In this document: positions 6,707-58,966 of the stretch, in pieces
Position numbering within the stretch: the stretch's first letter is position 1
Layout of the letters: the number at the start of each line of letters is the position of its first letter
Source: an uncultured Eubacteriales bacterium
Lineage (GTDB): Bacteria > Bacillota > Clostridia > Peptostreptococcales > Anaerovoracaceae
DNA length: 64,000 nucleotides
Direction: 5' to 3'
Assembly: GCA_902798745.1 (NCBI GenBank)
Contig: CADBXM010000007.1
Location: forward strand, 11,317-75,316
Translations under genes and position numbers: made by a program
Notes under the pieces: model-generated
Told to the model about the DNA's origin: nothing
What the model saw: the letters and a program-made list of their open reading frames with translations, nothing else
Databases searched by the model: none

Positions 6707-6747
6707 GGGCAGAAACTAGGAACAGAATCTAGAAACAAGGAGAAAGC

Positions 6748-9330: not shown

Positions 9331-9347
9331 CCGCAGCCATCGCGGGG

Positions 9348-11076: not shown

Positions 11077-11231
11077 TTAACGGATCAGACCTCCACTTTG
11101 TATGACTGCCCGGCAAACCTTGTCAGGCTTTGTTGCATCAGCTGTAATTATAGGAGATACCATGCGGACAAACAAGGTAAATTTATGCTTCTGAGACGAC
11201 AGTTTCGATTGGCGCCTGAGACCGCGGTCTG

Positions 11232-11260
11232 TTGATTTTGCATATGATACATATTAGAAT
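11232..11260 (+). promoter_or_regulatory. Candidate sigma-70 promoter for the 11324 ATP-grasp gene
   Basis: TTGATT (11232-11237), a 17-nt spacer, then TAGAAT (11255-11260). Confidence 0.35.
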
Positions 11261-11323
11261 ATATCATGAAGAAAAACGTAATCTGACAGGCTCCCAAGCA
11301 GGAGAAAATACGATAAAAACAAT

Positions 11324-12946: not shown

Positions 12947-12967
12947 AAGAGAGGAGACAGACCGGAA

Positions 12968-13402: not shown

Positions 13403-13418
13403 ACTCAAGGAGAGCCGG

Positions 13419-14456: not shown

Positions 14457-14488
14457 CTCAAAGCAGGTCCTTTACCGGGGAGACGGAA

Positions 14489-17308: not shown

Positions 17309-17346
17309 AACGGACACGAATACATAACATATAGAGGCAGAGGGGA

Positions 17347-18183: not shown

Positions 18184-18209
18184 CGGTCGATCATCAAAGG
18201 AGAAGACGC

Positions 18210-19013: not shown

Positions 19014-19021
19014 GGCCATAA

Positions 19022-35681: not shown

Positions 35682-36931
35682 GCATCACACAGATATTCAG
35701 AAAAACGATTTTTGACATAGCCAAGAAGAACAAAGCGTTCCGCATTGCTTTCAGGAAGAGCAGGGATGCCGCTTACAGTGTCAAAATGATACTGGACGAT
35801 CCTTTCGGGAAGATAGACGACAAGCTGGTCTACTTCCAGACTTTCTCGGGACGCGGCTACAGCGATTCGCCTAAGGCTATGTATGAATACATGCTGAGCG
35901 CGCCGGAATATAAGGATTACCGCTTCGTGTGGAGTTTCAAGGAACCCGAAAAATTCAGCTTTCTGCTTCAGAACGGCCGGACGGAAATCGTAAAGTTCCG
36001 CACACGCGCGGATAACATAGCTCTTCGCACGGCAAAGTACTGGATCACAAACTACCGCATGCTTGACCACCAGCTGCCGCGAAAGGGACAGATATACCTT
36101 CAGTGCTGGCATGGGACTCCGCTCAAGAGGCTCGGATACGATATCAAAGAGGGCGACAATGTAATGAACTCGCTGTCTGAGGTGAGAGAAAAATACAGGA
36201 GCGACGCAAAGCGTTTCGCCTATCTTCTTTCGCCTTCGCCGTTCGCGACCGAAAAATTTGCCACGGCATGGAACCTGATCGAGACGGGTCAGACGCACAA
36301 GATAATAGAGGAAGGCTATCCGCGCAATGACAGGCTCATCAACACTACTGAAGAAGAGCGCAGGGAGATAAGGAAGCAGCTGGGCGTAGACGATAAAAAA
36401 GTCATACTTTATGCTCCGACCTGGCGCGACAACCAGCACACGAGCGGGCAGGGCTACACCTACAAAACTGAGGTGGATTTTGACAAACTTCAGAAGGAGC
36501 TCGGTGGGGAATACGTGATACTGTTCCGCGCTCACTACCTTGTAGCCAACAGCTTTGACTTCAGCAAATACCCGGGCTTCGTTATCGACATGAGTTCTTA
36601 TGGCGACATAAACGAGCTCTACATAGCATCCGACCTGCTTGTGACCGATTACTCGAGCACATTCTTTGACTACGCGAATCTTAAAAAACCGGTCATCTTC
36701 TACATGTATGACCTTGAAGAATATGCCGGAGAGCTGCGAGGATTCTATCTTTCGCTAGACGAGCTCCCGGGACCGATCGTCAGAGACGAACAGAGCCTGA
36801 TAGATGAGGTGAGAGCGTGCTATGGCAGGCAGCCTGATGAGAAATACGAAGCATTCAGCAAGAGATTCAATCCGCTGGATGATGGCCACGCTTCGGAGCG
36901 TGTCCTGAAGAGGATAATGGAAAATGCTTGA
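35678..36931 (+). CDS. CDP-glycerol/ribitol polyol-phosphate transferase (TagF/TarF family)
   Basis: ...VYFQTFSGRGYSDSPKAMYEYM...LQCWHGTPLKRLGYD...ILYAPTWRDN...LLVTDYSSTFFDYANLKKPVIFYMYDLEEY...GFYL...LPGPIV. Confidence 0.8.
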   Translation: MSITQIFRKTIFDIAKKNKAFRIAFRKSRDAAYSVKMILDDPFGKIDDKLVYFQTFSGRGYSDSPKAMYEYMLSAPEYKDYRFVWSFKEPEKFSFLLQNGRTEIVKFRTRADNIALRTAKYWITNYRMLDHQLPRKGQIYLQCWHGTPLKRLGYDIKEGDNVMNSLSEVREKYRSDAKRFAYLLSPSPFATEKFATAWNLIETGQTHKIIEEGYPRNDRLINTTEEERREIRKQLGVDDKKVILYAPTWRDNQHTSGQGYTYKTEVDFDKLQKELGGEYVILFRAHYLVANSFDFSKYPGFVIDMSSYGDINELYIASDLLVTDYSSTFFDYANLKKPVIFYMYDLEEYAGELRGFYLSLDELPGPIVRDEQSLIDEVRACYGRQPDEKYEAFSKRFNPLDDGHASERVLKRIMENA

Positions 36932-38252
36932 CGCGATATCGAGACTTCTTGAAAGAACAAGAAATATCTCGCGAAGCGCTTACATCTGGAATACTGTGAG
37001 CGCGATGATGCTCGCGCTGCAGGGACCGGTGATCCAGGCGGTGGTGAGCAGGACAAACGGAGCTACCGACTTCGGTATCATTTCGATTGCCTTTTCCGCC
37101 GCGACCCTCATTATGTATGTGGGCCAGTACGGACTAAGAAGATTTCAGGCTTCGGACGTAAAAGAGCAATTCAGCTTTGAAGAGTATCACGGCATGCGTG
37201 TCGTGACATGCTTGCTGATGATAGTTGCCAGCTTCGTATTCTGCGCTTACGGCATGGCCTTCAAAGGCTATTCTTCTTTCAAGTTTGCAGTCGTGTTTAC
37301 GATATGCATTCTGAAGATGATAACCGCGTATTCCGATGTGTATCACGGAAACATGCAGCAGAAGGGCCGTTTCGACGTAGCGTCAAAGTCAACGGCGATA
37401 CGTTATACAGCTGAGATAATCATATTTTGCGTTATAGTTGCGATCACGCGCGACTTGCTGATATCCGCGCTGGTAACCGTTGTGAGCTCAGCGGTCATGA
37501 TGGCATTGCTGTCTATGAACGCGGGCAGCCACTACTGCAAATCGCTTAAACCGGTCTTCAAAAAGTCTGCTATAAGGGGACTGTTTATCGAAGGCTTCCC
37601 GCTGTTTGTGGGGATGTTCCTTAACACCTACGTGAGCAATGCGCCGAGATACGCGATAGATACATATCTGACCGATGATGTGCAGGCGGTGTTCTCTTCG
37701 ATATTCATGCCTGTGTTCGTCGTACAGGTCGCGTCCCAGTTCATCTTTTACCCGCTGATCACATCGTACGCGCACATGTGGAGCAAAGAAACGCTGGACA
37801 CATACAACGCGTTTGTCAAAAGGATATACAAGATGAGCGGGCTCGTTATCGGACTTGCTGTTCTGGGCCTTGTTGTCGCGGCTACTATAGGCATACCGGT
37901 GCTTTCCCTTATCTTCAAGCTGGATCTTACACCGTATAAAAAAGAGCTGATGATAATAATGCTGGGCGGAGGGCCGCTGGCATTCTCTGTCTACTTCAGC
38001 ACTATAATAGCGATAATACGCGCGCAGAAAAGCCTGATAGTCTGTTATGGAGTGACATCCGTGATGGCTTTGGCGCTGTCGGGCGTGTTCGTGAAGGGGC
38101 ACGGGATAACAGGAGCGTCCTGGATGTACGCATTGCTCATGACAGTACTGGCGCTGTCTCTTTTCGTAGCAATGCTGATCAGAATGAAGAAACAGAGACG
38201 GGATCTGACAAAAACAGAAGCTGGCTATGAGGCCGGTGATTTGGTACAATAG
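36924..38252 (+). CDS. Polysaccharide/teichoic-acid flippase-like polytopic membrane protein (MOP/Wzx-type)
   Basis: A 442-aa protein with about 12 or more hydrophobic segments, overlapping the preceding tagF-like gene by 8 nt. The assignment rests on topology and context rather than on a diagnostic motif. Confidence 0.5.
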   Translation: MLDAISRLLERTRNISRSAYIWNTVSAMMLALQGPVIQAVVSRTNGATDFGIISIAFSAATLIMYVGQYGLRRFQASDVKEQFSFEEYHGMRVVTCLLMIVASFVFCAYGMAFKGYSSFKFAVVFTICILKMITAYSDVYHGNMQQKGRFDVASKSTAIRYTAEIIIFCVIVAITRDLLISALVTVVSSAVMMALLSMNAGSHYCKSLKPVFKKSAIRGLFIEGFPLFVGMFLNTYVSNAPRYAIDTYLTDDVQAVFSSIFMPVFVVQVASQFIFYPLITSYAHMWSKETLDTYNAFVKRIYKMSGLVIGLAVLGLVVAATIGIPVLSLIFKLDLTPYKKELMIIMLGGGPLAFSVYFSTIIAIIRAQKSLIVCYGVTSVMALALSGVFVKGHGITGASWMYALLMTVLALSLFVAMLIRMKKQRRDLTKTEAGYEAGDLVQ

Positions 38253-44551: not shown

Positions 44552-44635
44552 CAACAACTCCTCGATTTCTGATAATATAAGTATTATAGCATGAAAGATT
44601 ATAAAAAACGATAAATGAGCAGTGGGAGGAACATC

Positions 44636-45514
44636 ATGAGAGTAGCGGTCACAGGGGCAAGCGGATATCTGGGGAGGAACTTCATGTCGATGTACATGGG
44701 CTCGTGCGACTTCGTTGCCCTAACAAGGAACGCGTCTTCTGCCGGACTCATGGAAGGCGTAGAGTATCGTGAGAGCGACTACAGCGAAGAGAGCCTTAAG
44801 GAAGTGCTGAGCGGCTGCGATGCGGTGGTACACCTGGCATACGCGATGGCAACAAAGGAAAATGAGCAGGCGGGCATGGAGGCATATCGCTCGAGCATGG
44901 AAGTGACTGAAAGAGTCTTCGAGACGGCCCTGAGCCTTGGTATCAAAAATATGGTGTTTGCCTCGAGCAGGCTGGTCTATCCGAGCCGCTCCGAGGAGCC
45001 GTTCACAGAGGACAGTCCGCTTGACCCGGGGACATCCTACGGAAAAAGCAAAGTCATGATGGAGCAGCTATGCGAGGAGCTCAATCAAAAGGGAGCGCGC
45101 ATCAAGGCGCTTAGATTCGGGCAGATAATAGGAGCGGACATGAAGGTGAGAGGCATGTTCCAGATATTTATGGAAAAGGCCGCGAATAACGAGCCGCTCA
45201 CCCTTATCGGAAGCGACGTAAGAGACTACATTTACGTAAAGGATGCATGCGGGGCCATAATGGCAGCGCTTCAGCACCCGGAAGCTTCGGGCATCTTCAA
45301 CATAAGCATGGGACGCGGAACAGACAACAGAGCGATGGCCGAAGGCATCATCAGCGAAATAGGGAGTTCGTCGGAAATATTGATCTCCGAAACAGGCAAT
45401 ACGAAGACACCTGACCGCATAGTGCTGGACACCCGAAAGGCCCAAAAACAATTAAGTTTCAGCTGTGAGTATGATACAATTAATAAGATAGTCAGAGACG
45501 TTTCGGCCTGCTGA
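44636..45514 (+). CDS. NAD(P)-dependent sugar epimerase/dehydratase/reductase (SDR extended family)
   Basis: GGGAGG ribosome-binding site. MRVAVTGASGYLGRNF contains the GxxGxxG motif, and SYGKSK is the YxxxK catalytic motif. Confidence 0.8.
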   Translation: MRVAVTGASGYLGRNFMSMYMGSCDFVALTRNASSAGLMEGVEYRESDYSEESLKEVLSGCDAVVHLAYAMATKENEQAGMEAYRSSMEVTERVFETALSLGIKNMVFASSRLVYPSRSEEPFTEDSPLDPGTSYGKSKVMMEQLCEELNQKGARIKALRFGQIIGADMKVRGMFQIFMEKAANNEPLTLIGSDVRDYIYVKDACGAIMAALQHPEASGIFNISMGRGTDNRAMAEGIISEIGSSSEILISETGNTKTPDRIVLDTRKAQKQLSFSCEYDTINKIVRDVSAC

Positions 45515-45538
45515 GACAGGCGGAGAAATCAACATATC

Positions 45539-46660
45539 ATGGACAATAAAAAAGTACTGATCCTGGGCGCGGGAAACGGCCAGATCGAAGCAATCGAATA
45601 CTGCAAAGCTCAAGGGCTTTTTGTTGCGGGCTGCAGCTACACCAACACAGACAAAGGGATACCACTGCTTGACGATTTCCGTCAGTCCGACATAAAGGAC
45701 ATAGAGGCGGTTGCCGCATACGCGACAGACCTTGGCGCGGATGCAGTCTATTCTGTCGGCTCAGACCTCGCCATACCAACGGCAATGCGCGTGAGCGAGA
45801 TACTCGGGCTGCCTCACTTCATATCCTACAGGTCGGCAGAGCTCTGCCACTCAAAACACCTGATGCGTGAGGCACTGGGAAATGGCTTCACGGGCAACGT
45901 GGACTTCATCGTTTGCGAAACACTTGATGAGGCTCTTGGCTGGGAGGCATTCCCGGCAATGATGAAGCCAGTAGACTCGCAGGGGCAGAGAGGCTGCTTC
46001 AGGGTGGATTCGGCAGAGGACATACGCGAGCACTTTGAGGCCTCGCTCGACTACTCGGTATGCGGTAAGGTGATCATCGAATCATATATAGACGGGCCGG
46101 AGATATCCGTCAATTCATACAGGGCAAATGGCAAGACTGTGTTTGCCGTAGTGTCCGACCGCGAGAGCTTTGAGGAGTATCCGGGAGGCCTGCCGAAAAA
46201 ACACAGGATACCTTCACTGTTCGCCGGCGCGGAAGCCAGCGCGGAGGCTGAGGACATCGTGGACAAGGCTGCTGATAAGCTGGGCATAACAGACGGGCCG
46301 TGCTACTGCCAAATGAAGATCGGCACCGACGGCAAGCCGTATATCATTGAGATAGCCCCTAGGCTGGACGGCTGCCACATGTGGAATCTCATCAAGCACT
46401 GGTGCGGAGTCGATCTGCTGAGCGCCTGCTTCGATCACCTTCTCACGGGAGATCCGGGCATCGACCCGGTCGATGAGGAGCCTTCAGGCGGTATAGAGCT
46501 TGAATTCCTGAGCGAAAAGACCGGCGCGCCATTCGACCCGGACAAATACGATACATCGGGCGCGGAGTATGTCTGCCTGTATTATGAAGAGGGAGACGCC
46601 GTGTCAAAGGTAAACGGTTATTACGAGAAATGCGGATATATGATCCGCCGTACAAAATAG
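45539..46660 (+). CDS. Classical ATP-grasp carboxylate-amine ligase-like protein
   Basis: KKVLILGAGNGQIEAIEYCKAQG (pre-ATP-grasp Rossmann-like stretch), ...MMKPVDSQGQRGCFRVDS..., ...IIESYIDGPEISVNSY..., ...YIIEIAPRLDG. Confidence 0.65.
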   Translation: MDNKKVLILGAGNGQIEAIEYCKAQGLFVAGCSYTNTDKGIPLLDDFRQSDIKDIEAVAAYATDLGADAVYSVGSDLAIPTAMRVSEILGLPHFISYRSAELCHSKHLMREALGNGFTGNVDFIVCETLDEALGWEAFPAMMKPVDSQGQRGCFRVDSAEDIREHFEASLDYSVCGKVIIESYIDGPEISVNSYRANGKTVFAVVSDRESFEEYPGGLPKKHRIPSLFAGAEASAEAEDIVDKAADKLGITDGPCYCQMKIGTDGKPYIIEIAPRLDGCHMWNLIKHWCGVDLLSACFDHLLTGDPGIDPVDEEPSGGIELEFLSEKTGAPFDPDKYDTSGAEYVCLYYEEGDAVSKVNGYYEKCGYMIRRTK

Positions 46661-46709
46661 AGCGTACAAAAAAGAGTTATAGCAAATCGAAAGCAAGGGG
46701 GATGATATA

Positions 46710-48020
46710 GTGTCTATCCACAAGAAACTTAAAAACGTATATGTACTCTGGTACGTCCTCACACTCAAGAAGACGTTCGAAGGAGACCCTAAAAAGATCA
46801 AGGCGAAGCAGAACCGCGATATCCACAGGCTCATGAAGCGCGCCTATAAGATCCCATTCTATCGCAAGAAATTCGAAGAATCCGGAACGACTCCAGACGA
46901 TTACCACTGCGCTGAAGACCTCGTCAAATTCCCGCTGCTCACCAAGCCTGAACTGAGAAAGTGGATGCAGGACGAATGGGACAACCATCCGGAGATCCAC
47001 GACAAGGTCAATGTTCACGCTACCAGCGGATCATCGGGCGTTCCTCTTCGCGTGCTCTACTCTCAGAGAGAACAGGGCTGCAGCGACGCCAACTGGATCA
47101 GAGTGCTGATGGCCGCGGGCTATCATCCGTTCTTCGGCAAGATGTATTCGTTCCAGACAAGCCACAGGGACCCTAACGACAAGAGCAGGGATTCCTTTAT
47201 ACAGAAGTTCGGCGTGATGAGACGCAAAGTCGTTTCCGAGGATTATTGCGTGGGCGACGGCATTGCCGATACCATCAGGGACATCAACGAATACAAACCT
47301 GACATGATCTGCTTCAGGCGCAACTGCCTCGTGAGGATAGTAGCGTATGCCGAGCAGCACAACATGCCGGTGTGGAAGCCTAAACTGTACTGCCCAATAA
47401 GCGAGATGGTCGATGATGTCACAGTCAAGCTGCTGACAAAGACCCTCGGCGACGGACTGATCGACGCGTACGGCATATCCGAGATGGGAAGCAGCATCTA
47501 CAAATTCCCGGGCAATGATTTCTATTATCTTGCCAACGACATCGCCGCCGCGAATGTTTACGATGACAACGATCAGCCGGTAGACAACGGCAGACTCATT
47601 CTGACCGCGACTTACAAGAAAGACTACCCGCTCATCAATTACGATGTGCTCGACATCGTCACATCATACAAGAAGGACGGACTCAGATACTTCAAATCCA
47701 TCGAGGGCCGCATGAACGACCTTGTCAAACACGAGGGCGGAGCTGACTCATCCGCGCTTATGCTGATGAGGATCGCGAACAAGGTGGTCGGACTGTCGCA
47801 GTTCAGGTTCGTGGAGGAGACCTATCACGACATGCTGATCGAGCTCGCTCCTGACCCAAACAACACCTCGATGACCAGAGAAGAGATAGAGAACCACTTT
47901 ATCACCGAAGTCAAAAAGCTTTACGGTGATGAGTTCAGGATCAGGGTCGAATGGAAAGACACCCTGCCGCCTGAAGAGACGGGAAAGCAGAAGTGCTTCA
48001 TATGCAAAGTGAAAGATTAA
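46710..48020 (+). CDS. Adenylate-forming enzyme of the PaaK/CapK/F390-synthetase type
   Basis: GTG start 8 nt after AGGGGGA. ...YKIPFYRKKFEESG...FPLLTKPELR...HATSGSSGVPLRV (AMP-binding T-S-G-S-S-G loop). Confidence 0.65.
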   Translation: MSIHKKLKNVYVLWYVLTLKKTFEGDPKKIKAKQNRDIHRLMKRAYKIPFYRKKFEESGTTPDDYHCAEDLVKFPLLTKPELRKWMQDEWDNHPEIHDKVNVHATSGSSGVPLRVLYSQREQGCSDANWIRVLMAAGYHPFFGKMYSFQTSHRDPNDKSRDSFIQKFGVMRRKVVSEDYCVGDGIADTIRDINEYKPDMICFRRNCLVRIVAYAEQHNMPVWKPKLYCPISEMVDDVTVKLLTKTLGDGLIDAYGISEMGSSIYKFPGNDFYYLANDIAAANVYDDNDQPVDNGRLILTATYKKDYPLINYDVLDIVTSYKKDGLRYFKSIEGRMNDLVKHEGGADSSALMLMRIANKVVGLSQFRFVEETYHDMLIELAPDPNNTSMTREEIENHFITEVKKLYGDEFRIRVEWKDTLPPEETGKQKCFICKVKD

Positions 48021-48982
48021 GAGACCCTTACTTCGACAACTTAAGAGGCGCGCTTATATGCCTCGTGGTTGCCGGGCACTGTGCCAACCTGTATAAAGAC
48101 AGCAATGTTTATTGCTGGTATTTGTTCAACTTTATCTACGCCTTCCATATGCCTCTGTTCTTCTACATATCGGGCTACTTCAGCAAGAATGTGGAGAAGA
48201 CATATAGAAAAGCGTTCGAAGCGTTGATCATACCGGCGATACCTTTCGAATTGCTGTATTTCATAATGCATGTAGCGACCGGAGCAGACAATACGGAGCC
48301 GTTCCTGACTCCTGTATTTGCCTACTGGTTTTGCTTTGCGCTGTTCTTCTGCAGGGCGCTGCTGCCTTATCTCATCCGCCTGAGGTGGATCGTACCGATC
48401 ACCTTTATCCTGGCGCTTGCGATAGGCTTCAACCCGCAGATCAACGAATACATGACTTTATCGCGCTTCCTGTGTATGCTGCCGTTCTTCCTGCTCGGCT
48501 ATTACACGACACGCGAAAACATGGAGAGGATACGCAGCATCAATACCGGGCTGGCGGCAGCGCTTGGAGTAGCAGCGATCGCAGCGGTCTTTGCCCTGCT
48601 TAAGTTTACGGATCTGGCCCCGGGATTCACACTGAGGGCACCGTACGAAACCCCGATGGGCGTGCTGGTCAGAGCTTTCCAGTTTGTTGTTGCGATACTG
48701 ATTTCCCTTGCGGTGATGAAGCTGATCCCGCAGGGCAAATCTTATTTAGCTACTATAGGACAGAGGACATTGCAGATCTATTTCCTGCATTTCTACTTCA
48801 CGACAGCGATCAAAATGGTGAACCCTGTCGCTGAAGCATCTGTTCTCAATTTCGTATTGATGCTGGTCGCCGCGCCGGTGATCACGGTCATACTGGCGAC
48901 TCCGCCGGTGACTAAGGTCTACGACGCGCTGATAAACGCGGTCAAGAAGCTGTTGTTAAAAAGAGAAACAGGAGAAGTATAA
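47993..48982 (+). CDS. Acyltransferase-3 family membrane O-acyltransferase
   Basis: PYFDNLRGALICLVVAGHC... followed by about 10 hydrophobic helices, which is the typical Acyl_transf_3 N-terminus. The start is ambiguous (GTG at 47993 or ATG at 48002). It overlaps the preceding gene. Confidence 0.65.
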   Translation: MLHMQSERLRDPYFDNLRGALICLVVAGHCANLYKDSNVYCWYLFNFIYAFHMPLFFYISGYFSKNVEKTYRKAFEALIIPAIPFELLYFIMHVATGADNTEPFLTPVFAYWFCFALFFCRALLPYLIRLRWIVPITFILALAIGFNPQINEYMTLSRFLCMLPFFLLGYYTTRENMERIRSINTGLAAALGVAAIAAVFALLKFTDLAPGFTLRAPYETPMGVLVRAFQFVVAILISLAVMKLIPQGKSYLATIGQRTLQIYFLHFYFTTAIKMVNPVAEASVLNFVLMLVAAPVITVILATPPVTKVYDALINAVKKLLLKRETGEV

Positions 48983-48984
48983 GT

Positions 48985-50283
48985 ATGTATATAGATCCGG
49001 GTACCGGAAGTATGCTGTTTACGATCCTTGTCGGATCGATCGGTGCCGGCGCTTACGCGCTGAGGGACCGCATGCTTAAGTTGAGGTTTTATATGAGCGG
49101 CGGAAGGGCCGAGAAGAACACGGGCGACAACCCCGACTATGTCATCTTCTCAGACAGCAAGAGATACTGGAATGTGTTCGAGCCGATTTGCGATGAGTTT
49201 GAGGCGAGAGAGACAGAGATCATCTACATGACATGTTCGGAAGACGACCCTGCTCTCAGCAAGGACTACAAATTCGTTAAGTGCGAGTTTATCGGTGAGG
49301 GCAACAAGGCTTTCGCTAAGCTCAACAGCCTGAAGGCGGATATCCTGCTGTCCACGACACCGAGCCTGGATGTCTTTTACTGGAAGCGTTCCAAGGACGT
49401 CAAATGGTATGTGCATATCCCGCACGCATGCGACGACCTCACAAAATACAGAATGTTCGGCATCGACTACTACGATGCCATATTATGCTCAGGCGACTAT
49501 CAGATCAACGAGGTGAGGAAGCTCGAAGAGCTGAGGAACCTGCCTCAGAAGGAGATGGTGAATACCGGGCTCACATACCTCGACACGATGAAGGCAAGGC
49601 TCGAAAAGACCGGCGGGCGCAAGACCGCGGGCAGGCCTAAAAGCGAGATCAATGTTCTGCTGGCACCTTCGTGGGGACCGAGCTCCATATTCAACCGCTT
49701 CGGGACCGAAATGATAGACAGCCTTCTGTCGACCGGATACCACATCATCGTAAGGCCTCACCCTCAGTCATTCACCAGCGAAAAGGAGATGATAGAGGGC
49801 ATAATGGCAAAGTATCCTGACAGCGACAGACTGGAGTGGAACAGGGACAACGACAACTTCGATGTGCTCAACAGATCGGACATACTGATATCCGACTTCT
49901 CGGGCGTGGTGTACGACTTCTGCCTTGTCTTCGACAAACCGGTGATCTACGCCGACGTCTCGTTCGACGACAGCCCGTATGACGCGTGCTGGATCAAAGA
50001 GAAACCATGGTCGCTGTCCACCCTTGAGAAGGTGGGTACGCAGCTCACAAAGGACAATATAGGAAACATCGGGCAGGTGATAGACACCTGCATCAATGAT
50101 GAGAGATTCCAGAAGGCAAGGGACGAAGCCCGCGAGGAAGCCTGGGTCTGCATGGGAGAGAGCGCAAAGCTCGTAGCAGACTATCTCATCGTCAAGCACG
50201 CCGAGTTGGAAAGGCTTGCTGAAGAGGAACAGGCTGTCAACGTAAAGGAAAAGAAAAAAGAAAAAGTAAAGGAACCGGCGTAG
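48985..50283 (+). CDS. TagF-family polyol-phosphate transferase-like protein with an N-terminal membrane helix
   Basis: CAGGAGAAG ribosome-binding site. N-terminal GTGSMLFTILVGSIGAGAYAL. ...VLLAPSWGPSS...IVRPHPQS...ILISDFSGVVYDFCLVFDKPVIYAD. Confidence 0.6.
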   Translation: MYIDPGTGSMLFTILVGSIGAGAYALRDRMLKLRFYMSGGRAEKNTGDNPDYVIFSDSKRYWNVFEPICDEFEARETEIIYMTCSEDDPALSKDYKFVKCEFIGEGNKAFAKLNSLKADILLSTTPSLDVFYWKRSKDVKWYVHIPHACDDLTKYRMFGIDYYDAILCSGDYQINEVRKLEELRNLPQKEMVNTGLTYLDTMKARLEKTGGRKTAGRPKSEINVLLAPSWGPSSIFNRFGTEMIDSLLSTGYHIIVRPHPQSFTSEKEMIEGIMAKYPDSDRLEWNRDNDNFDVLNRSDILISDFSGVVYDFCLVFDKPVIYADVSFDDSPYDACWIKEKPWSLSTLEKVGTQLTKDNIGNIGQVIDTCINDERFQKARDEAREEAWVCMGESAKLVADYLIVKHAELERLAEEEQAVNVKEKKKEKVKEPA

Positions 50284-50295: not shown

Positions 50296-53079
50296 ATGAC
50301 CATTTTAGGAATGTTATATAAATTACTGATAGGCCCTCTGGAACTGCTTTTCGAGGTGATATTCGTCATCGCCAACGGAAAGGTCAGCAATCCGGCCTAT
50401 GCCATCATCGCGCTCAGCCTTGCGATGAACTTTCTGGTGCTCCCGCTGTACAAGCGGGCGGACGCCATGCAGGCAGAAGAGCGTGACCGTGAGGCGAGGA
50501 TGCGCCCGTGGATCGACCACATAAAGAAGACCTTCAAGGGCGATGAGCGCTTCATGATGCTCCAGGCGTATTACAGACAAAACGACTACAAGCCTACGCA
50601 CGCGTTCAAGGGCTCGGTATCGCTGTTCCTTGAGATCCCATTCTTTATCGCGGCGTACAGATTCCTCTCGGGGCTCGAAACTCTGAAGGGCATATCCTTC
50701 GGACCTCTCACAGACCTGGGAGCGCCTGACGCTCTGATCAACATCGGCGGAACAACAATAAACTTCCTTCCGATATTGATGACTCTTATCAACGTCGTAG
50801 CTGCCGCTGTATACATGAAGGGCATGCCTCTCAAAAATAAGATAACGACTTATGGTATCGCGGCGATCTTCCTGGTACTGCTGTACAACTCTCCGGCGGG
50901 ACTGGTATTCTACTGGACTCTGAACCAGATATTCTCGCTGATCAAAAACGTATTCTATAAGTTCAAGGACCCTGCCAAGGTGCTCAGGATACTGGCATCC
51001 GTTACAGGCATCGTGCTTGTGGCTCTGGTGATAATCGCTCATCCATTCAGGAGCATTCGGGTGCAGGTCATGGTGATCGTGCTTCTTCTCTGCCTGCAGC
51101 TGCCTATTCTGCTCGCGTATCTCAGGAAAAGAGGCAACAGCCTTGAGATCAAAGCGGATATCAAGCAGAGCAATCTGCTCTTCCGCGCGTCGACCATACT
51201 GTTGACCATACTTACGGGTATACTGTGCCCATCAGCCGTGATCGGCGACAGTACCGAGGAATTCATCAATCTTAATAATTACGTATCGCCAAACTGGTTC
51301 GTGGTAAGCGCGTTCCTGCTGGCAGCCGGTACGTTCATCATATGGTTTGGCATTTTCTACGGATTGGCGGATACGGGCGGCAAGCATGTGCTCAGTCTCA
51401 TCACTGCCATGATCGCGGTGATCGGTCTGGTGAATTACATGCTGTTCAGCAAGGATTACGGTAACCTCTCGGCTGAACTTCAGTACGACGAAAATCCATC
51501 GATATCCGGCAAGATGATACTCATCAATCTGGTGGTCGCGCTCGCGATCATGCTGGTGGTCGCCCTGATCTGGAAGTTCAAGGCGTCTCTGCTCGGCGGA
51601 GGCATCGCGGTAGTCTGCGTAGCGCTTCTTATAATGAGCGCGCTCAACATCGTATCGATCAATAAGGTGCTCGCGGCTGACAGCGACATGATAAAAAGCG
51701 CTTCAGTAGCCGAAGAGCCCGAGCTTGATCTCAGCAAGAACGGAAAGAACGTAGTCGTCATCATGATGGACAGGATGGCCGGCTTCTACATCCCTTACAT
51801 ACTGGAGGAAAAGCCTGAACTGAAGGAACAGTTCGACGGCTTCACATATTACGAAAATGTTGTGTCGCACGCGACTACAACTAACGAAGGTGCGCCGGCT
51901 CTGTATGGCGGATACGACTATACGCCGTTTGAGATCGATAAGCGCTCCGATGAATCGCTGAAGAAAAAGAACGACGAAGCTCTGAAGGTGATGCCTGAGA
52001 TGTTCGGAGGTTCGGGCTATGATGTGACTATCTGCGAGCCGACATACGCCGGATACAAGCAGATCCCGGATCTCTCGATATTCGACGATCACCCTGAATA
52101 CAAGACATTCAATCTGAACGGAAAGTTCTCGCTTGAAGAGTATGGATATGTCACAAGCAAGGATTCAAGTTCTGTGACTATGTTCCGAAACTTCTTCTGC
52201 TACAGCATATTCAGGATAGTTCCATCGGCGCTGCAGAAGATGGTTTACTCAAAAGGCACCTACAACTCATCCGTTACCAGCGGCTTTGTTATAGGCCACA
52301 CCATGGATGGCTCATCGAAGTCACACGGATTCGTTAGGAACTTCATGAGGACATACGCAGTTCTGTGCCATCTCAATGATATAACCGTGACATCGAAGGG
52401 AGGCAAAGGCAACTTCATAATGATGTCGAATGACACCTCGCACGAGCCTATGCTTCTGCAGGAACCGGCATATGTACCGGCGCTGGATGTAGACAACACG
52501 GAATACGATGAGGAGCACCCGACACGCGTCGACGCTGACGGAAATGTTCTGGAGTTCGAAAACGACGAGACCCGCAAGCATTATCACGTCAACATGGCGA
52601 CCATGCTGAAACTCGGTGAGTGGTTCGACTATCTCAAGAAGGAAGGCGTGTACGACAACACCCGCATCATCATCGTTTCAGACCACGGTACTCCTTACAG
52701 ATTTACCGGGCCGTATTCCCTCTATTATACCGATGAAGATACCGGCGAGCAGAAGAACCTCGATATCCGCAGGTTCCAGTGCACTCTGATGTATAAGGAC
52801 TTCGATGCGGAGGGCATCACGGTCGAAGAGGAATTCACCACGAATGCCGACGTGCCGGCACTCGCGACTGAAGGTTTAGTCAAGGATCAGGTCAATCCGT
52901 TTACCGGAAATCGTCTGGCAAAAGGAAATAGTAGTCTGCTGCCGATCAGACTCGTGAGGACAAGTGAGCACAACATAAGAAAGAACAACGGCAACACGTT
53001 TATCCCGGGCAATATATTCGAGCTCAGCGGAGACCCGCATGTCGTCGATAACTGGGAATATGTCGGTAACGATTACTAA
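50296..53079 (+). CDS. Fusion protein: YidC/Oxa1-like insertase domain, polytopic membrane region, and an alkaline-phosphatase-superfamily (LtaS/sulfatase-like) ectodomain
   Basis: The N-terminus matches the YidC core pattern: ...LVLPLYKRADAMQAEE...MRPWIDHIKKTFKGDERFMMLQAYYRQNDYKP...LEIPFFIAAYRFL...FGPLTDLGAPD...FLPILMTLIN...PAGLVFYWTLNQIFSLI. The C-terminus is AP-superfamily-like: VVVIMMDRMAG...SHATTTNEGAPAL...MSNDTSHEP...IIIVSDHGT. Confidence 0.6.
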   Translation: MTILGMLYKLLIGPLELLFEVIFVIANGKVSNPAYAIIALSLAMNFLVLPLYKRADAMQAEERDREARMRPWIDHIKKTFKGDERFMMLQAYYRQNDYKPTHAFKGSVSLFLEIPFFIAAYRFLSGLETLKGISFGPLTDLGAPDALINIGGTTINFLPILMTLINVVAAAVYMKGMPLKNKITTYGIAAIFLVLLYNSPAGLVFYWTLNQIFSLIKNVFYKFKDPAKVLRILASVTGIVLVALVIIAHPFRSIRVQVMVIVLLLCLQLPILLAYLRKRGNSLEIKADIKQSNLLFRASTILLTILTGILCPSAVIGDSTEEFINLNNYVSPNWFVVSAFLLAAGTFIIWFGIFYGLADTGGKHVLSLITAMIAVIGLVNYMLFSKDYGNLSAELQYDENPSISGKMILINLVVALAIMLVVALIWKFKASLLGGGIAVVCVALLIMSALNIVSINKVLAADSDMIKSASVAEEPELDLSKNGKNVVVIMMDRMAGFYIPYILEEKPELKEQFDGFTYYENVVSHATTTNEGAPALYGGYDYTPFEIDKRSDESLKKKNDEALKVMPEMFGGSGYDVTICEPTYAGYKQIPDLSIFDDHPEYKTFNLNGKFSLEEYGYVTSKDSSSVTMFRNFFCYSIFRIVPSALQKMVYSKGTYNSSVTSGFVIGHTMDGSSKSHGFVRNFMRTYAVLCHLNDITVTSKGGKGNFIMMSNDTSHEPMLLQEPAYVPALDVDNTEYDEEHPTRVDADGNVLEFENDETRKHYHVNMATMLKLGEWFDYLKKEGVYDNTRIIIVSDHGTPYRFTGPYSLYYTDEDTGEQKNLDIRRFQCTLMYKDFDAEGITVEEEFTTNADVPALATEGLVKDQVNPFTGNRLAKGNSSLLPIRLVRTSEHNIRKNNGNTFIPGNIFELSGDPHVVDNWEYVGNDY

Positions 53080-53090: not shown

Positions 53091-54809
53091 ATGCTGGAAA
53101 GAGACACTAATAGATCAAACGCAAAAGCACTCATCATAGCACTGTCAGTAAATATACTGATATTGCTGGTTTGCTTTTTCATTTTCTATCCTGTATTCGA
53201 AACAAACGACGACAACGGGCTTATCGCGATCGCGAGCGGCATAAGGGGAGTTCGCGAGGCGCATATAGTGCATACGAACATCCTGGTCGGGAAACTGATC
53301 ACATCGCTCTACGCGGTCGCGCCGGCGATTCAGTGGTGGAGCGTGCTCCAGCTGCTCCTGCTGTTCATCTCTTTCTTCTTTGTCACGTATATCTTCATCC
53401 GGAGCGACACCGGCATCGCGAGGGTCCTGTTCGTGACGGCCGTTACATCATTCTTCGCTTATGAAGGCTATGTTCGCATCCAGTACACAAAGAGCGCGGG
53501 CATATACAGCGCGGCAGGGCTCATGCTTGTGTTCTACGGGCTGCTTCAGGAGAAGCCTGAGAAGAAGTTTATAATTCCCGGCATGCTGCTCGCTCTTGCA
53601 GGTTCGTTCTACAGGACGCAGCAGTTCGCCTGCATAGTGGCTATCTTCGCGTCCATGGTCGTATATTTGATCATGCGCTGCGTCCAGGATTTTGAGAAGC
53701 CTAAAAAACGCATAATCACAGCTCTTGCGGTCGGCGCCATACTGCTGCTCGCCGCGGGCGGATTCAGAGTATACGACAGGAGCCAGTATAAGGACCCTGA
53801 CTGGGCGGCTTATCTTGAGTTCGACAAGTACCGCACCGAGGTGCTCGACTACAGGATCCCTGATTATGACGAGCACAAGGAAGAGTACAACGCTATAGGC
53901 ATAGACGAGACAGCCTACAAGCTCATGAAGAGCTGGACCTTCCAGGACCCTGAGAAGTTCACTGCCGAAACATTCAAAAAGATATCCGATCTGAACGAGA
54001 AACGGACGATAGACGCGGCGTTCGCGAAGAAATTCCTCAAGAGATTCGCGAAGGGACTAAGAGATGAAGCAGTGTTCCTCTGCTTCGCCGTCATAGCGAT
54101 AGGATGGCTGCTCACCGGCAGACGCAAGGCCCGCAACTGGGTGTGCCTCATCATCATGGCCTTGGCCATATTGGCGATGAACGCATACCTCTATTACGCG
54201 GGAAGGTTCATGATACGCAGGGTGGATGTAGGCATATGGTTTGCCGCCTCACTCATAATGATGTACCAGTGCTTCGCCGACAAGCCTGTTAAGGACAAAG
54301 CGGAGGCGGTCGGCGGGAGCGCCAAAGGCGGTGTGCTGAAGAATGCAGTGCTTGTTGTGCTCTGCCTGGCGATCATCGCCGTATTCGCCTTTGAGATGCC
54401 GTGGCGAAGCGGCTTCAGATCTGTGGTAGAGGAGAAAGCCGCAGCCGCCGAAGTCGAAAGAAGCGCTATAGAAAAGATCGGAGGCGACAAAGATCACCTC
54501 TATCTGACAAAGGTGGGCGTCCTCGGATTCAGCGAGGTCTATGGAGTGATGGACCCTCAGCCTTACAAGATAGCGGACAACATCTATCCTCTTGGAGGAT
54601 GGGGAGCGGCGACTCCGGCTTACCTGAGCGTGCTCAGAAATTACGGCGTGAACAATCCGTTCCGCGACATGATCGGTAACGACAAAGTCTATCTCATAGA
54701 CAATAAGATAAACGACACACTGGCATATCTCAGAAAATGGTATAAGCCTGACGCTGAAGCCGAACTGGTGGATGAGGTAGAAGGCCATAAAATATACAGG
54801 ATAAAGTAA
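53091..54809 (+). CDS. Large polytopic membrane protein, unknown function (candidate extracytoplasmic polymer-modifying enzyme)
   Basis: A 572-aa protein with about 10 hydrophobic segments and a soluble C-terminal region. I recognised no diagnostic motif. It lies between the YidC-LtaS-like fusion and a GT-C-like protein. Confidence 0.4.
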   Translation: MLERDTNRSNAKALIIALSVNILILLVCFFIFYPVFETNDDNGLIAIASGIRGVREAHIVHTNILVGKLITSLYAVAPAIQWWSVLQLLLLFISFFFVTYIFIRSDTGIARVLFVTAVTSFFAYEGYVRIQYTKSAGIYSAAGLMLVFYGLLQEKPEKKFIIPGMLLALAGSFYRTQQFACIVAIFASMVVYLIMRCVQDFEKPKKRIITALAVGAILLLAAGGFRVYDRSQYKDPDWAAYLEFDKYRTEVLDYRIPDYDEHKEEYNAIGIDETAYKLMKSWTFQDPEKFTAETFKKISDLNEKRTIDAAFAKKFLKRFAKGLRDEAVFLCFAVIAIGWLLTGRRKARNWVCLIIMALAILAMNAYLYYAGRFMIRRVDVGIWFAASLIMMYQCFADKPVKDKAEAVGGSAKGGVLKNAVLVVLCLAIIAVFAFEMPWRSGFRSVVEEKAAAAEVERSAIEKIGGDKDHLYLTKVGVLGFSEVYGVMDPQPYKIADNIYPLGGWGAATPAYLSVLRNYGVNNPFRDMIGNDKVYLIDNKINDTLAYLRKWYKPDAEAELVDEVEGHKIYRIK

Positions 54810-54818
54810 CGACTTGAC

Positions 54819-56522
54819 ATGGATCGGGACAGACATCTGAAACCCTCTGAAAAATCAAATAATGGTATGTTAGCAACATGGCTGATAATTATCAGCTTGG
54901 TGATTTTGGGTATAGTTTACTGTCTGCCTCTGTTTTTTACAGACGGGATCCACAAAGTCGACGACACCACATTCCACGTCGGCAGGCTTGTAGGTCTCAG
55001 CAATGTATTCACCTCGCCTGTCAACTTCAACAGCTTCGGCAACAACGGCCTGATGGTCAACATCTTTTACCCGTGGCTCACCATGTACCCTATGTACATC
55101 CTGTACAAGCTCACGGGAAGCTATGTACTGGGATACAAACTGTACTATGTTCTCCTGTCGGTCGTGACGATGCTGCTGTCATATTGGTCGATGCTTAAGA
55201 TCACCAAGAACAAAGCCGGGGCGTATGTGTTTGCTATCATATACGCGTTTTCGAGCTACAGGTTCGCAGACGTGTTCAACAGGGCGGCTCTCGGAGAGTC
55301 GATAGCCCTGGCGTTCCTGCCATTGGTCCTCCTCGGCATATACAAGATCTGCTTTGAAAACTATAAAGAGTGGCGCAAACTCGCGGCCGGGATGACTCTG
55401 CTGGCATACTCTCATATGCTTTCGCTTGTCATGGCTACGGCGTTCACGGGAGTCCTGTTCCTGATCGCGATCATCACTCAGGACAACAGAGGCAAGAGGT
55501 TTGTCTCCATGGTGAAGGCAGCTTGTCTCTCACTTGCGCTTTCGGCCGCCATGATAGTTCCGATGGCGGAGCAGATGCTCAAAAACGATTTATTCACTCC
55601 GTCGGGAGACGGGGGTACGATGTCAAAGTCGGCGTACAGCCTGGCAGAGATAATCAAATTCACAGTTATTAACAACCCTGCGGGCAGAGGCGTTGGAGCC
55701 ATGTCTCTTGCGGCATTCCTGATGACGATAGTGCTGCTGATCTGCGGCATCATACTGCATGGCCGCTTTACGACCGATGACAAGTTCGTCATCTGGCTGC
55801 TGCTGATAGGGATCGTCATGTTTGTCGCCACAGCCGACATACTTCCATGGCATTATCTCGGGGACAACACTCCTCTTTCGACGATACAGTTTGTCTGGAG
55901 GATGAACGCCTATCCGACGCTCGCGTTCGCCGCGGCCTTTTCGATATTGCTGTCAAAGGCAATGAGTTCCGATAGGAAGAATGTTATAATACTAATTACA
56001 ATTGTCACCTTGGCATTCGCCGGGGTGCAGTACTACACTCTGTATGCGCGGAACGCGGAGATCGTGAGTCACGATCGCATAGCGGAGGAGGACGTCGCGA
56101 CCTGGGCTTCGGGCAATGTCGACTACACTCCGTACCAGGCATGGGAATACCGCGAAGAACACAGCGACAATATGCAGTACATGTATATTGACGGAAAAGA
56201 GATCGCCAAGAGCCCGGTGACAAAGGAAAGTGGAACATACTATGTTCAGGATCTCGGCGGTTCGGGCAAGGACAGGACAGCGGACATACCGGTCTTCAAA
56301 TTCTACGGAGAGAAGGTGCTGCTGAACGAAGAAGCTGTCGAATCAGACTTATCCGCCCGCGGAACGACGGAAGTCAAGGTCCCGCGTTCCAAAGAAGCGG
56401 TAGTTACGATATCTTATGCCTACACGACTCTCGCGAGAGCATCATGGGCATTTTCGATAATTATATTAATTCTCAGTATCATAGTTGCCATGCGCGCCAA
56501 GCCTGAAAAGCAGGAAGGCTGA
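54819..56522 (+). CDS. GT-C-fold-like polytopic membrane glycosyltransferase (YfhO / PTPS-related-membrane-protein-like)
   Basis: After the first transmembrane helix comes ...TDGIHKVDDTTFHVGRLVGLSNVF...NNGLMVNIFYPWL, a D-x-x-FH-x-x-R first-loop motif typical of these GT-C proteins. About 12 transmembrane helices and a C-terminal ectodomain with a final transmembrane helix follow. The assignment is tentative. Confidence 0.45.
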   Translation: MDRDRHLKPSEKSNNGMLATWLIIISLVILGIVYCLPLFFTDGIHKVDDTTFHVGRLVGLSNVFTSPVNFNSFGNNGLMVNIFYPWLTMYPMYILYKLTGSYVLGYKLYYVLLSVVTMLLSYWSMLKITKNKAGAYVFAIIYAFSSYRFADVFNRAALGESIALAFLPLVLLGIYKICFENYKEWRKLAAGMTLLAYSHMLSLVMATAFTGVLFLIAIITQDNRGKRFVSMVKAACLSLALSAAMIVPMAEQMLKNDLFTPSGDGGTMSKSAYSLAEIIKFTVINNPAGRGVGAMSLAAFLMTIVLLICGIILHGRFTTDDKFVIWLLLIGIVMFVATADILPWHYLGDNTPLSTIQFVWRMNAYPTLAFAAAFSILLSKAMSSDRKNVIILITIVTLAFAGVQYYTLYARNAEIVSHDRIAEEDVATWASGNVDYTPYQAWEYREEHSDNMQYMYIDGKEIAKSPVTKESGTYYVQDLGGSGKDRTADIPVFKFYGEKVLLNEEAVESDLSARGTTEVKVPRSKEAVVTISYAYTTLARASWAFSIIILILSIIVAMRAKPEKQEG

Positions 56523-56552: not shown

Positions 56553-57881
56553 ATGAAAAAAGTAATCACATACGGAACATACGATATGATGCACGTCGGT
56601 CATATCAATCTGCTCAAAAACGCCAAGGCACTCGGCGACTATCTTATCGTCGGCGTAACGTCTGATGAGTTCGACATTTCGAGGGGCAAAATAGATGTCC
56701 GTCAGTCGCTCACCGAGAGGATCAACGCCGTGCGCGAGACAGGCCTTGCGGACGAGATCATCGCGGAGGAGTACGAAGGCCAGAAGATCGCCGACATAAT
56801 AAAGTATGACGTAGACATCTTCACCGTCGGTTCGGACTGGGTCGGAAAGTTCGACTACCTGAAAGACTTCTGTCAGGTGGTATATCTGCCGCGCACCGAA
56901 GGCATATCGAGTACACAGATAAGGGAAGAGTCGAACAAGACAGTAAGGCTCGGAGTCTATGGCCACAAAGAGCCGGCTGGCCGGGTCGTAGATGAGACAG
57001 CTTTTGTCAGCGGCATCAAAGCGTCTTCGGTCTACTCGGAGGACGCCGAGGCGGGGAAAGCCCTGGCAGAGAAGAAATCGATCGAGGCATGCGGCAGTGT
57101 CGAAGAGTTTTACGATTCATGCGACGCCGTCTACATCAATGCGAATATCAATGAAAGAGCAGATCTTATAAAGGACGCGCTCAAAAACGGCAAGCATGTG
57201 CTCTGCGAGGGACCGCTTTCAAATGATGAAAAAGCAACCTCCGAATGCATAGAACTCGCGAAGGAGAAAAAACTCGTCCTCTTCGACGCGATCAAGACGG
57301 AGTTCTTCCCGGGATACAAACATCTCGAGCTTCTGATAAAGAGCGGAAAGCTCGGAGAGATCAAGGACATAGACGTTTCGTTCAGCCAGCAGGACGCTTC
57401 CCAGAATTACGATGAAATGACCAGATATGAGGGCAGCATCTATGACATGTGCGGATTCATCTTCCTGCCTATATTCCATCTGCTGGGCACTGACTTTGAA
57501 AGCATCGACTTCTATTCAAGTCTTAACTCGAACGGAGCGGATATATATACGCGCGGGCTCATCAAGTTCAGCAACGCCATCGCGTCCTTCAGGACCGGGC
57601 TCGGCATCAAGACCGAGGGCCAGCTCATCATAACGGGAACGAAGGGATACCTGTACGTGCCTGCGCCATGGTGGAAGACCGACTACTTCGAGATAAGGTT
57701 TGAAGACCTCAGAGATACGAAGAAATACTTCTGGCAGTATGAAGGCGAAGGCTTCAGGTATGAGATGATCGAATTCCTTCGCAGGATAAATACGGAAAAA
57801 TATGAACCGGACTTCTCGCGCTCACTTGCCACGGCGAAAGCGCTTGAGGCCTTCAATGATCACAGAGAGAATGTCTTTTAG
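56553..57881 (+). CDS. Fusion of a TagD-like cytidylyltransferase with a Gfo/Idh/MocA-like domain
   Basis: The N-terminus is ITYGTYDMMHVGHINLLKNAK...LPRTEGISSTQIR (both cytidylyltransferase motifs). The C-terminus is VRLGVYG...DAVYINANINERADLIKDALKNGKHVLCEGPLS..., Gfo/Idh/MocA-like, but the EKP motif reads EGP. Confidence 0.7.
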   Translation: MKKVITYGTYDMMHVGHINLLKNAKALGDYLIVGVTSDEFDISRGKIDVRQSLTERINAVRETGLADEIIAEEYEGQKIADIIKYDVDIFTVGSDWVGKFDYLKDFCQVVYLPRTEGISSTQIREESNKTVRLGVYGHKEPAGRVVDETAFVSGIKASSVYSEDAEAGKALAEKKSIEACGSVEEFYDSCDAVYINANINERADLIKDALKNGKHVLCEGPLSNDEKATSECIELAKEKKLVLFDAIKTEFFPGYKHLELLIKSGKLGEIKDIDVSFSQQDASQNYDEMTRYEGSIYDMCGFIFLPIFHLLGTDFESIDFYSSLNSNGADIYTRGLIKFSNAIASFRTGLGIKTEGQLIITGTKGYLYVPAPWWKTDYFEIRFEDLRDTKKYFWQYEGEGFRYEMIEFLRRINTEKYEPDFSRSLATAKALEAFNDHRENVF

Positions 57882-57898
57882 GAGAAACGGAGGACAGA

Positions 57899-58966
57899 AT
57901 GGGATATTACGTAGACGAACATGTAAAGAATACCGAGAGGGTCTTTCCGGGCCAGGGAAGATACGGGAAAAAGAGATATGACATGAATGAGAACCCGGAA
58001 GGTCTCCCAAAGGAATTCGTTGACGGAGTCCTCAAGGAGATCACGCCTGAATTTCTCAGCATCTATCCTGAGCCTGACAGATTCCTCAGAAAATACGCGG
58101 AGTTCCTGGGCTGCGGCGTCAAGTTCGAAAACCTCGTAGCGACGAACGGCTCGGATATGTCGATCAGATATGTACTGGAAACATTCGGCGAAGAGGGCAA
58201 AGGCGTCGTTACTGTCAGCCCTTCGTTTGAGATGTACTGGGTCAACTGCTCTATCCTTGGGCTTAAGCATGTTCCTGTTACATACGAGGATGACATGACT
58301 ATCTCGATAGACAAGATACTCGGAGCTATCGATGAGGATACGAGGATAGTGGTGTTGCTCAATCCGAACAACCCTATAGGCAACGTGTATACCGATGACG
58401 ATGTAGAGAAAGTGATCGCCAAGGCAAAGGAAGTCGGCGCTATAGTCGTTATCGATGAGGCATATCATTACTTCTGCGAGAAGACCTTCCTTCCATACGC
58501 AATGTCAGAAGACAACGTGATCGTGCTGCGGACTTTCTCTAAGCTAATGTCAATTGCGGCATGCAGACTGGGTATCGCGATCGGTCATCCTCAGCTGATC
58601 CACTATATCAAAAACAGCAAGCTCACATTCGATGCCAACTCTATAGCGCTTCTGTTCGCGGAGAGGCTGATAGAGCGCCCGGATATAGTCGAAGACCTGA
58701 TCAAGATCGAAAAAGAAGGAAAGGCGCATATACTCAAGAGGCTTGATGAAGAGGGATACGAGGCCAGGGGAGGCCAGGGCAATTTCATTTTCGTGAAGCC
58801 GAAGAAAAACGCGAAAGAACTGGCAAAGGAGCTTGAGGAAAAATACGACGTGCTTGTTCACGCTTACGGAAATCCTCTTCTGAAGGACTTTATCAGGGTA
58901 ACAACAGGTTCGAAAGAATCGATGGATGTGTTCCTCGAAGCGTTTTTCAAGGCAGATACACTGTAA
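57899..58966 (+). CDS. Class I/II PLP-dependent aminotransferase (HisC-like)
   Basis: GGAGAAACGGAGG ribosome-binding site. ...LNPNNPIGN..., ...IDEAYHYF..., ...RTFSKLMSIAACRLGIAIG (PLP-lysine motif). Confidence 0.75.
   Translation: MGYYVDEHVKNTERVFPGQGRYGKKRYDMNENPEGLPKEFVDGVLKEITPEFLSIYPEPDRFLRKYAEFLGCGVKFENLVATNGSDMSIRYVLETFGEEGKGVVTVSPSFEMYWVNCSILGLKHVPVTYEDDMTISIDKILGAIDEDTRIVVLLNPNNPIGNVYTDDDVEKVIAKAKEVGAIVVIDEAYHYFCEKTFLPYAMSEDNVIVLRTFSKLMSIAACRLGIAIGHPQLIHYIKNSKLTFDANSIALLFAERLIERPDIVEDLIKIEKEGKAHILKRLDEEGYEARGGQGNFIFVKPKKNAKELAKELEEKYDVLVHAYGNPLLKDFIRVTTGSKESMDVFLEAFFKADTL

Follow-up and report, generated by a model that had tools for sequence, protein, structure and literature searches.

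Proteins of the YidC family are known as general insertases, whose usual job is to move the short N-terminal tails of single-helix proteins across the membrane, and known enzymes of the LtaS/EptA type use lipid donors. In the DltB-DltX-DltD and PatA-PatB systems, DltX and PatA are tyrosine (Tyr) acyl shuttles, free or fused: a microprotein whose outer tail carries an invariant Tyr connects a cytoplasmic donor to an outer hydroxyl-nucleophile enzyme (PMC12148441). In Sinorhizobium, noeA and noeB have been known since 1995 to be needed for nodulation of particular Medicago species (work cited in PMC9758233), with no mechanism assigned; that paper also describes a small conserved neighbor of NoeA homologs, to which it gives no function. 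Here we analyze a stretch of 64,000 nucleotides (the window) from an uncultured Anaerovoracaceae bacterium (contig CADBXM010000007.1, positions 11,317 to 75,316), in which a single gene encodes a YidC-like domain joined to an outward-facing enzyme of the alkaline phosphatase superfamily. This fusion is one half of a four-part module, comprising a YidC paralog, a TagF-like loader, a single-helix peptide with a Y[IL]DP motif, and an ectoenzyme, which occurs in three fusion arrangements.

The fusion gene is genuine, conserved, and accessory

Positions 50296-53079 of the forward strand form one open reading frame (ORF) of 927 amino acids (aa), which contains all the motifs quoted in an earlier reading of these letters (the original prediction). 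That reading proposed an insertase-enzyme fusion, and both halves scored above their Pfam cutoffs: 60KD_IMP at residues 35-221 (E 6e-20, 72 bits; cutoff, 35) and Sulfatase at residues 484-800 (E 7e-8, 32.5 bits; cutoff, 25). The AlphaFold2 model of the whole protein has a mean predicted local distance difference test score of 94.8 and a predicted template modeling score of 0.92. A missed stop codon, frameshift, or assembly artifact was ruled out as the source of the fusion, because full-length relatives number in the thousands (5525 matches of similar length; of the best 120, nearly all align over the full query length) and because single contigs of another strain, taken from a separate study, span, without gaps, both the YidC/linker junction (50834-51360) and the junction between the transmembrane (TM) region and the ectodomain (51543-52083).

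A relative is encoded at at least 544 GTDB loci, in Oscillospiraceae, Lachnospiraceae, Anaerovoracaceae, Eggerthellaceae, Negativicutes, and Treponema; among named relatives, the nearest come from Anaerovoracaceae/Mogibacterium metagenome-assembled genomes (84% and 77%). The full fusion is present in 1 of 18 genomes of the genus and was not found in 300 Bacillota genomes or in 150 genomes of the order: it is an accessory gene with a patchy distribution. We found no full-length relative on plasmids. DNA of the locus is present in bovine gut sequencing runs, and RNA evidence is limited to short contigs from two bovine RNA libraries, which do not establish transcription; a promoter scan at the locus gave matches at chance level only. 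As the original prediction supposed, the fusion is undescribed in the literature: we found no publication on it or on the peptide, and no description of YidC+sulfatase, YidC+LtaS+phosphocholine, YidC+TagF+microprotein, or the motif, in a search outside which most subscription papers lay.

A YidC-fold domain without the groove arginine

The model of residues 1-222 shows the five-TM core fold of YidC and matches Bacillus halodurans YidC (3wo7) with Z 15.2 and a root mean square deviation (rmsd) of 3.1 over 208 of 224 residues, in agreement with the 60KD_IMP match and with the YidC-like identity first proposed. Like YidC/Oxa1 insertases (3wo6/3wo7, Escherichia coli YidC, Bacillus subtilis SpoIIIJ), the domain has an amphipathic first helix and a cytoplasmic hairpin; unlike them, it is accessory, patchy, fused to an enzyme, and under the TIGR03592 cutoff. 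The conserved groove Arg, whose retention had been posed as a question, is replaced by Asn45. Among 150 relatives, this site holds Asn (135), Ser (10), Gln (3), or Cys (2) and is never basic, whereas 34 of 35 housekeeping YidCs have Lys or Arg there. At residue 217, a TM5 position at which housekeeping YidCs conserve Gln, 149 of 150 relatives have Lys or Arg. Polar residues S41, N45, Q59, E/Q113, T163, N166, N210, S214, and K217 are conserved.

The genome has a separate housekeeping yidC in an rpmH-rnpA-yidD-yidC-jag operon, so the fusion was rejected for that role. Its N-terminal part is a YidC-fold paralog that lacks the groove Arg and lies outside the housekeeping locus. Loss of the Arg is still compatible with insertase activity, because E. 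coli YidC R366A/N complements if residue 517 is aromatic (PMC8920935) and because a groove charge moved to another position still serves in B. subtilis (PMC6827917); the fusion has N45 together with W207.

A complete five-TM transferase

The linker after the YidC-like domain has two TM helices in 109 relatives, none in 33, and one in 8; in the 142 of 150 that have two or none, the ectodomain stays outside. Residues 289-927 form a complete five-TM plus alkaline-phosphatase-fold enzyme: the model aligns with PbgA (6xlp) over residues 286-926 (Z 19.9, rmsd 14.9) and with MCR-1 (9nww) over residues 287-877 (Z 17.8), and the ectodomain matches LtaS (2w5q; Z 17.7) and EptC (Z 18.4). The acidic loop residue E322 is Glu or Asp in 148 of 150 relatives. 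D492, H716, D796, and H797 are present in all 150, K834 is invariant, and T529, at the start of helix 529-538 in the model, is present in 149; catalytic roles were assigned from motif position. The original prediction had named a candidate Thr nucleophile, which we assign to the third Thr of SHATTTN (T529), since T527 and T528 vary. Its phosphotransferase reading of an LtaS/sulfatase-type ectodomain is supported, with metal and nucleophile residues kept, but the C-terminal part is more than an ectodomain. A formylglycine-dependent sulfatase was rejected: there is no C/S-x-P-x-R motif, and the site reads T529-N-E-G-A-P.

With EptA/MCR-1, LtaS/LtaP, GacH, and PbgA/YejM, this part shares the five TM helices, the outward alkaline-phosphatase-fold domain, and the pattern of acidic ligand, Thr, His, and Asp-His, but identity is only ∼10 to 15%. 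It is a new family of EptA/LtaS-type enzymes. The fusion is further set apart by its association with a loader that would use CDP donors, with a microprotein, and with a YidC domain; the known EptA/LtaS-type enzymes need none of these and draw on membrane phospholipids.

The TagF-like partner, the peptide, and the cargo genes

A TagF-like gene ends 12 bp 5′ of the fusion gene (Table 1). Its product has best Foldseek matches to TagF (3l7i-m, E 1e-12) and, like the wall teichoic acid polymerase, combines the TagF fold with two active-site-type His residues (H144 and H259, both invariant), but it carries a TM anchor and scores low on PF04464 (46 bits, where the pair of ordinary tagF-like genes upstream reach 174 and 369). 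It has almost no similarity to the local tagF, and the linked cargo is often choline, which cannot polymerize. The adjacent "TagF" is a remote, dedicated paralog.

Type A, the arrangement found here, consists of peptide+TagF beside YidC+ectoenzyme. Of 74 type A loci, 55 include the partner, which is <100 bp away in 47; for 8 of the 10 exceptions that we checked, it lies at another place in the genome. Type B, first met via a weak match in a phylum screen and also a large family, consists of YidC+TagF, a free microprotein, and one to three stand-alone five-TM ectoenzymes: the ectoenzyme is present in 78 of 90 loci and the peptide in 85 of 93, many of these loci being near-copies. In one locus (L154), the peptide is fused to the ectoenzyme. 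Loci L182-L230, from the human gut, are type B tandem arrays with one to three divergent ectoenzyme genes per one loader and one peptide. Type C consists of the microprotein, a NoeA kinase-methyltransferase, and an alkaline-phosphatase-fold enzyme; examples are S. meliloti nodL-[71 aa]-noeA-noeB and loci in Novosphingobium and Singulisphaera.

The YidC groove of type A is remodeled (N45, K217, T163, N166), while that of type B is housekeeping-like (Lys at the Arg site, Gln at 217). In trees, type B falls inside the housekeeping YidCs, the nearest housekeeping rows having been chosen for likeness to type B, and type A lies on a long branch. We do not claim two independent recruitments of YidC: the approximately unbiased test permits types A and B as a single clade (p 0.46).

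When 400 genomes were screened with the peptide profile alone, there were nine solid matches besides this genome, and one weak match was an unrelated gene. All eight solid matches with context had a loader (seven NoeA, one YidC-TagF) and an alkaline-phosphatase-fold neighbor. Across all types, Tyr and Asp are the sole invariant residues; the Tyr is the only conserved hydroxyl and is never Phe in 57 type A, 28 type B, and 120 database sequences. Leaders range in length from one Met residue to an entire signal peptide, which suggests that the alpha-amine is not required. Type A peptides have no signal peptide and an acidic N-tail, like classical YidC-only substrates. Peptides with Sec signals still adjoin a dedicated YidC, which a role in biogenesis alone would not require. 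Signal peptides and the positive-inside rule suggest that the Tyr lies on the outer tail. No NCBIfam model fits the microprotein. Complex prediction with the full fusion and the partner's first 48 residues scored 0.00 and counts for neither side.

Two kinds of peptidase-like genes accompany the module. S26 signal peptidase I-like genes adjoin the microprotein (L257:7332-7760) or type B ectoenzyme arrays (L182-L230). Fourteen type A loci contain an Rce1-like (CPBP) intramembrane protease gene, in many cases placed between the TagF-like gene and the fusion or immediately upstream; loci with this gene include L006, L008, L009, L022, L043, L059-L061, L065, L070, L072, L076, and L080. This protease might trim or recycle the peptide.

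Candidate donor-making (cargo) genes vary. Of 80 loci, 28 have licC-like, 22 licA-like, and 19 licB-like genes; a nucleotidyltransferase-aminotransferase fusion was present in five loci, and a phosphoenolpyruvate (PEP) mutase in a type B locus. In the latter (L254:3080-7261), the module carries a PEP mutase/nucleotidyltransferase fusion, a phosphonate cargo, and lies back-to-back with the housekeeping rpmH-yidC operon. LicABC-like cargo genes thus recur at many module loci, as in the lic operon (LicABC-LicD), but LicD was not found in 9 of 10 licABC-linked genomes, all drafts. The window's genome has no licABC. Downstream of its fusion lie a TagD-like/oxidoreductase gene, at whose position a close relative (L017) has the nucleotidyltransferase-aminotransferase fusion, and a HisC-like gene; by analogy with Campylobacter jejuni Cj1437/Cj1436 (PMC11800397), the genes at 56553-58966 suggest an amino-alcohol phosphate such as serinol-P.

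Table 1. Coordinates of the fusion gene, its domains and key residues, and associated genes
Feature	Residues (aa)	Position	Strand	Basis or remark
Fusion gene: YidC-like domain, two-TM linker, five-TM/alkaline-phosphatase-fold transferase	1-927	50296..53079	+	∼12 TM helices, ectodomain outside
YidC-fold domain	1-222	50296..50961	+	Pfam E 6e-20; structure match; alignment to BhYidC2 and E. coli YidC; conservation
Groove Arg replaced by Asn	45	50428-50430	+	Alignment to BhYidC2 and E. coli YidC
Conserved Gln replaced by Lys	217	50944-50946	+	Alignment; conservation
Two-helix linker, dispensable	226-278	50971..51129	+	150 relatives compared
Five-TM membrane domain, EptA/MCR-1/PbgA type	289-461	51160..51678	+	Structure alignment
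Extracytoplasmic alkaline-phosphatase-superfamily domain		51724..53076	+	Pfam Sulfatase; D492, T529, H716, D796, H797, K834
Putative nucleophile Thr	529	51880-51882	+	Conserved 149/150
TagF-like (GT-B) cytoplasmic phosphotransferase, putative loader	432 in all	48985..50283	+	Pfam Glyphos_transf E 5.5e-12; Foldseek
YIDPGTG tail and single TM helix, fused microprotein form; Tyr2 = proposed carrier residue	1-37 of TagF-like protein	48985..49095	+	
TagD-like cytidylyltransferase fused to Gfo/Idh/MocA oxidoreductase, candidate cargo gene		56553..57881	+	
HisC-like pyridoxal phosphate enzyme, candidate cargo gene		57899..58966	+	
Signal-peptide + Y[IL]DP single-helix microprotein gene, unnamed	71 in all	L241:3260-3475		S. 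meliloti pSymA, between nodL and noeA

Genomic surroundings

The original prediction placed the fusion within a teichoic-acid cluster, which holds loosely: the module travels among unrelated loci, and the classical tagF-like pair lies 13 to 16 kb upstream (34596-36931). Together with a Wzx-like flippase gene, these two ordinary TagF/TagB-type genes occupy 34596-38252, and a teichoic-acid-like polymer made by them could be the acceptor. Another envelope locus (4721-19846) has four "sugar-transfer associated ATP-grasp" paralogs, an asparagine-synthase-like gene, a LicD-family gene (17347-18183), and an ABC transporter pair. The immediate flanks of the module (44615-48982 and 53091-56522) encode an epimerase, an ATP-grasp protein, a PaaK-like ligase, an acyltransferase-3 protein, and two GT-C-like membrane proteins; they are kept beside it only in the two to three closest relatives.

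Link to noeA and noeB

The Sinorhizobium nodL-noeA-noeB region has the same layout, with a microprotein gene just 5′ of the loader and an alkaline-phosphatase-fold neighbor, but its loader is a kinase-methyltransferase, whereas the window has a TagF-like gene there. The 71-aa S. meliloti protein reads AHA-YLDPGTGSM followed by a TM helix, and its gene is on 57 Sinorhizobium plasmids. In Legionella Lani_1193-1195 (PMC9758233), Lani_1193 may be the same peptide, judged by size and position alone. Against the C-terminal (ectoenzyme) profile, S. meliloti NoeB matched weakly (E 0.04), and Bacillota NoeA neighbors matched at E 1e-24 to 1e-30. Two Bacillota genomes carry microprotein-noeA-ectoenzyme triplets (L270 and L272) embedded in ABC-transporter (wzm/wzt-like) polysaccharide loci, a setting that suggests that a glycan is decorated or capped with methyl-phosphate; each of these genomes also has a second, divergent stand-alone YidC (G059:C44:3099-3617 and G013:C18:43598-44113).

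A Tyr-carrier relay and its alternatives

The module, whose four parts look obligately linked, probably serves surface phospho-decoration from a nucleotide-activated donor, with the fusion protein as its membrane-crossing and outward-transfer half. As for mechanism, we favor a relay, to which we assign a probability of roughly 45%, that would run from the loader to the peptide Tyr, then by way of YidC to ectoenzyme Thr529 and an envelope polymer. Interchangeable cargo genes would make a CDP- or CMP-activated donor: CDP-choline with LicABC and, going by the linked genes, probably a CDP-amino-alcohol or CDP-polyol at this locus. The TagF-like enzyme would then put the phospho-headgroup on the invariant Tyr in the peptide's Y[IL]DP tail and release CMP; such CMP-releasing phosphotransfer follows from the established enzymology of the TagF fold. 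The fold of the YidC domain could allow this tail to pass to and fro between the loader in the cytoplasm and the outer face. The ectodomain, with its conserved residues, would take the group onto Thr529 at the metal site and pass it to a wall polymer or glycan; a Thr-phospho intermediate there follows from established LtaS/EptA enzymology.

We infer the shuttle pattern because two unrelated loaders share one peptide with one fixed hydroxyl; TagF-like and NoeA-type loaders would both yield a phosphodiester, which is the kind of donor that ectoenzymes of this class use. Because the loader is a soluble domain, the peptide tail would have to travel, and the Y[IL]DP helix on the TagF-like partner suggests that a peptide, not a lipid, occupies the YidC groove. 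By analogy, the module resembles Dlt/Pat in logic and is not a member: it has no MBOAT or SGNH protein, its parts have TagF, YidC, and alkaline phosphatase folds, its motif is an N-terminal Y[IL]DP rather than a C-terminal FxYxxF, its loader fold is soluble, and its proposed cargo is a phospho rather than an acyl group.

Several points weigh against this relay. The positive-inside rule puts the resting Tyr on the outside; repeated loading would therefore require an inward return of the tail, and we know of no such return through YidC. The Tyr counts come from searches that favor Tyr, and because every residue of the heptapeptide is invariant in type A, the motif could also serve in docking. 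No partner was found in 2 of the 10 draft genomes checked, and in a Treponema-type glycosyltransferase locus (L083; fusion at 10001-12655) there is no TagF-like gene or peptide within ∼10 kb. NoeA-type loci have no nearby YidC gene, and three of five such genomes have a single YidC; a dedicated YidC is therefore not always needed. Finally, known LtaS/EptA-type enzymes use lipid donors, and the fusion keeps, with E322, the whole five-TM domain of those of the EptA/MCR-1 type.

This last point fits a lipid carrier, in line with the scramblase role raised in the original prediction: the TagF-like enzyme would load diacylglycerol or undecaprenyl phosphate, the YidC groove would scramble it to the outer leaflet, and the ectoenzyme would use it as donor, the Y[IL]DP helix being a connector. 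We consider this rather unlikely: TagF-fold enzymes act on polymer hydroxyls, not lipids, and a connector leaves unexplained why two unrelated loaders share one peptide whose Tyr does not vary. YidC does scramble phospholipids in vitro (10.1101/2023.09.01.555937), and the remodeled type A groove speaks for such a role, the housekeeping-like groove of type B against it. Less probable still is that the YidC domain serves assembly only, inserting the N-out peptide helix or folding the transferase, with transfer taking place in a loader-peptide-ectoenzyme complex without YidC turnover. The substrate-like type A peptides, the combination of N45 and W207 with the mutant data cited above, and NoeA-type systems that work without an extra YidC are all in its favor, but these genomes already have a housekeeping YidC, microproteins with signal peptides still have a dedicated one, and permanent fusion to loader or ectoenzyme together with family-specific groove conservation would better fit a standing role. 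A hydrolytic ectodomain, acting as a phosphodiesterase or phosphonate monoesterase to remove or scavenge headgroups, is highly improbable; although its top Z scores are to phosphonate monoester hydrolases and sulfatases (20 to 21, versus 17 to 18 for LtaS/EptA), the sulfatase motif is missing, Thr is at the nucleophile site, the five-TM transferase architecture is present, and the linked genes (cytidylyltransferases, choline kinase, PEP mutase) serve biosynthesis.

Significance

New here are the four-part module, the free or fused Y[IL]DP peptide, and its presence before noeA-noeB in Sinorhizobium. It is possible, though we say so tentatively, that a recyclable phosphotyrosine-diester peptide, its tail cycled through a repurposed YidC, provides a third transmembrane route for activated phospho groups that uses neither a bulk phospholipid nor an undecaprenyl carrier, and that NoeA/NoeB carry out methyl-phosphate decoration. 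The peptide link makes the noeA/noeB mechanism directly testable at one codon of the unnamed 71-aa gene 5′ of noeA. Recruitment of a YidC paralog into a biosynthetic relay would put the fold to a new use. In gut and rumen Clostridia, the module would offer a way to surfaces with phosphocholine, amino-alcohol, or phosphonate groups that does not depend on LicD; such surface groups influence charge, phage binding, and host recognition.

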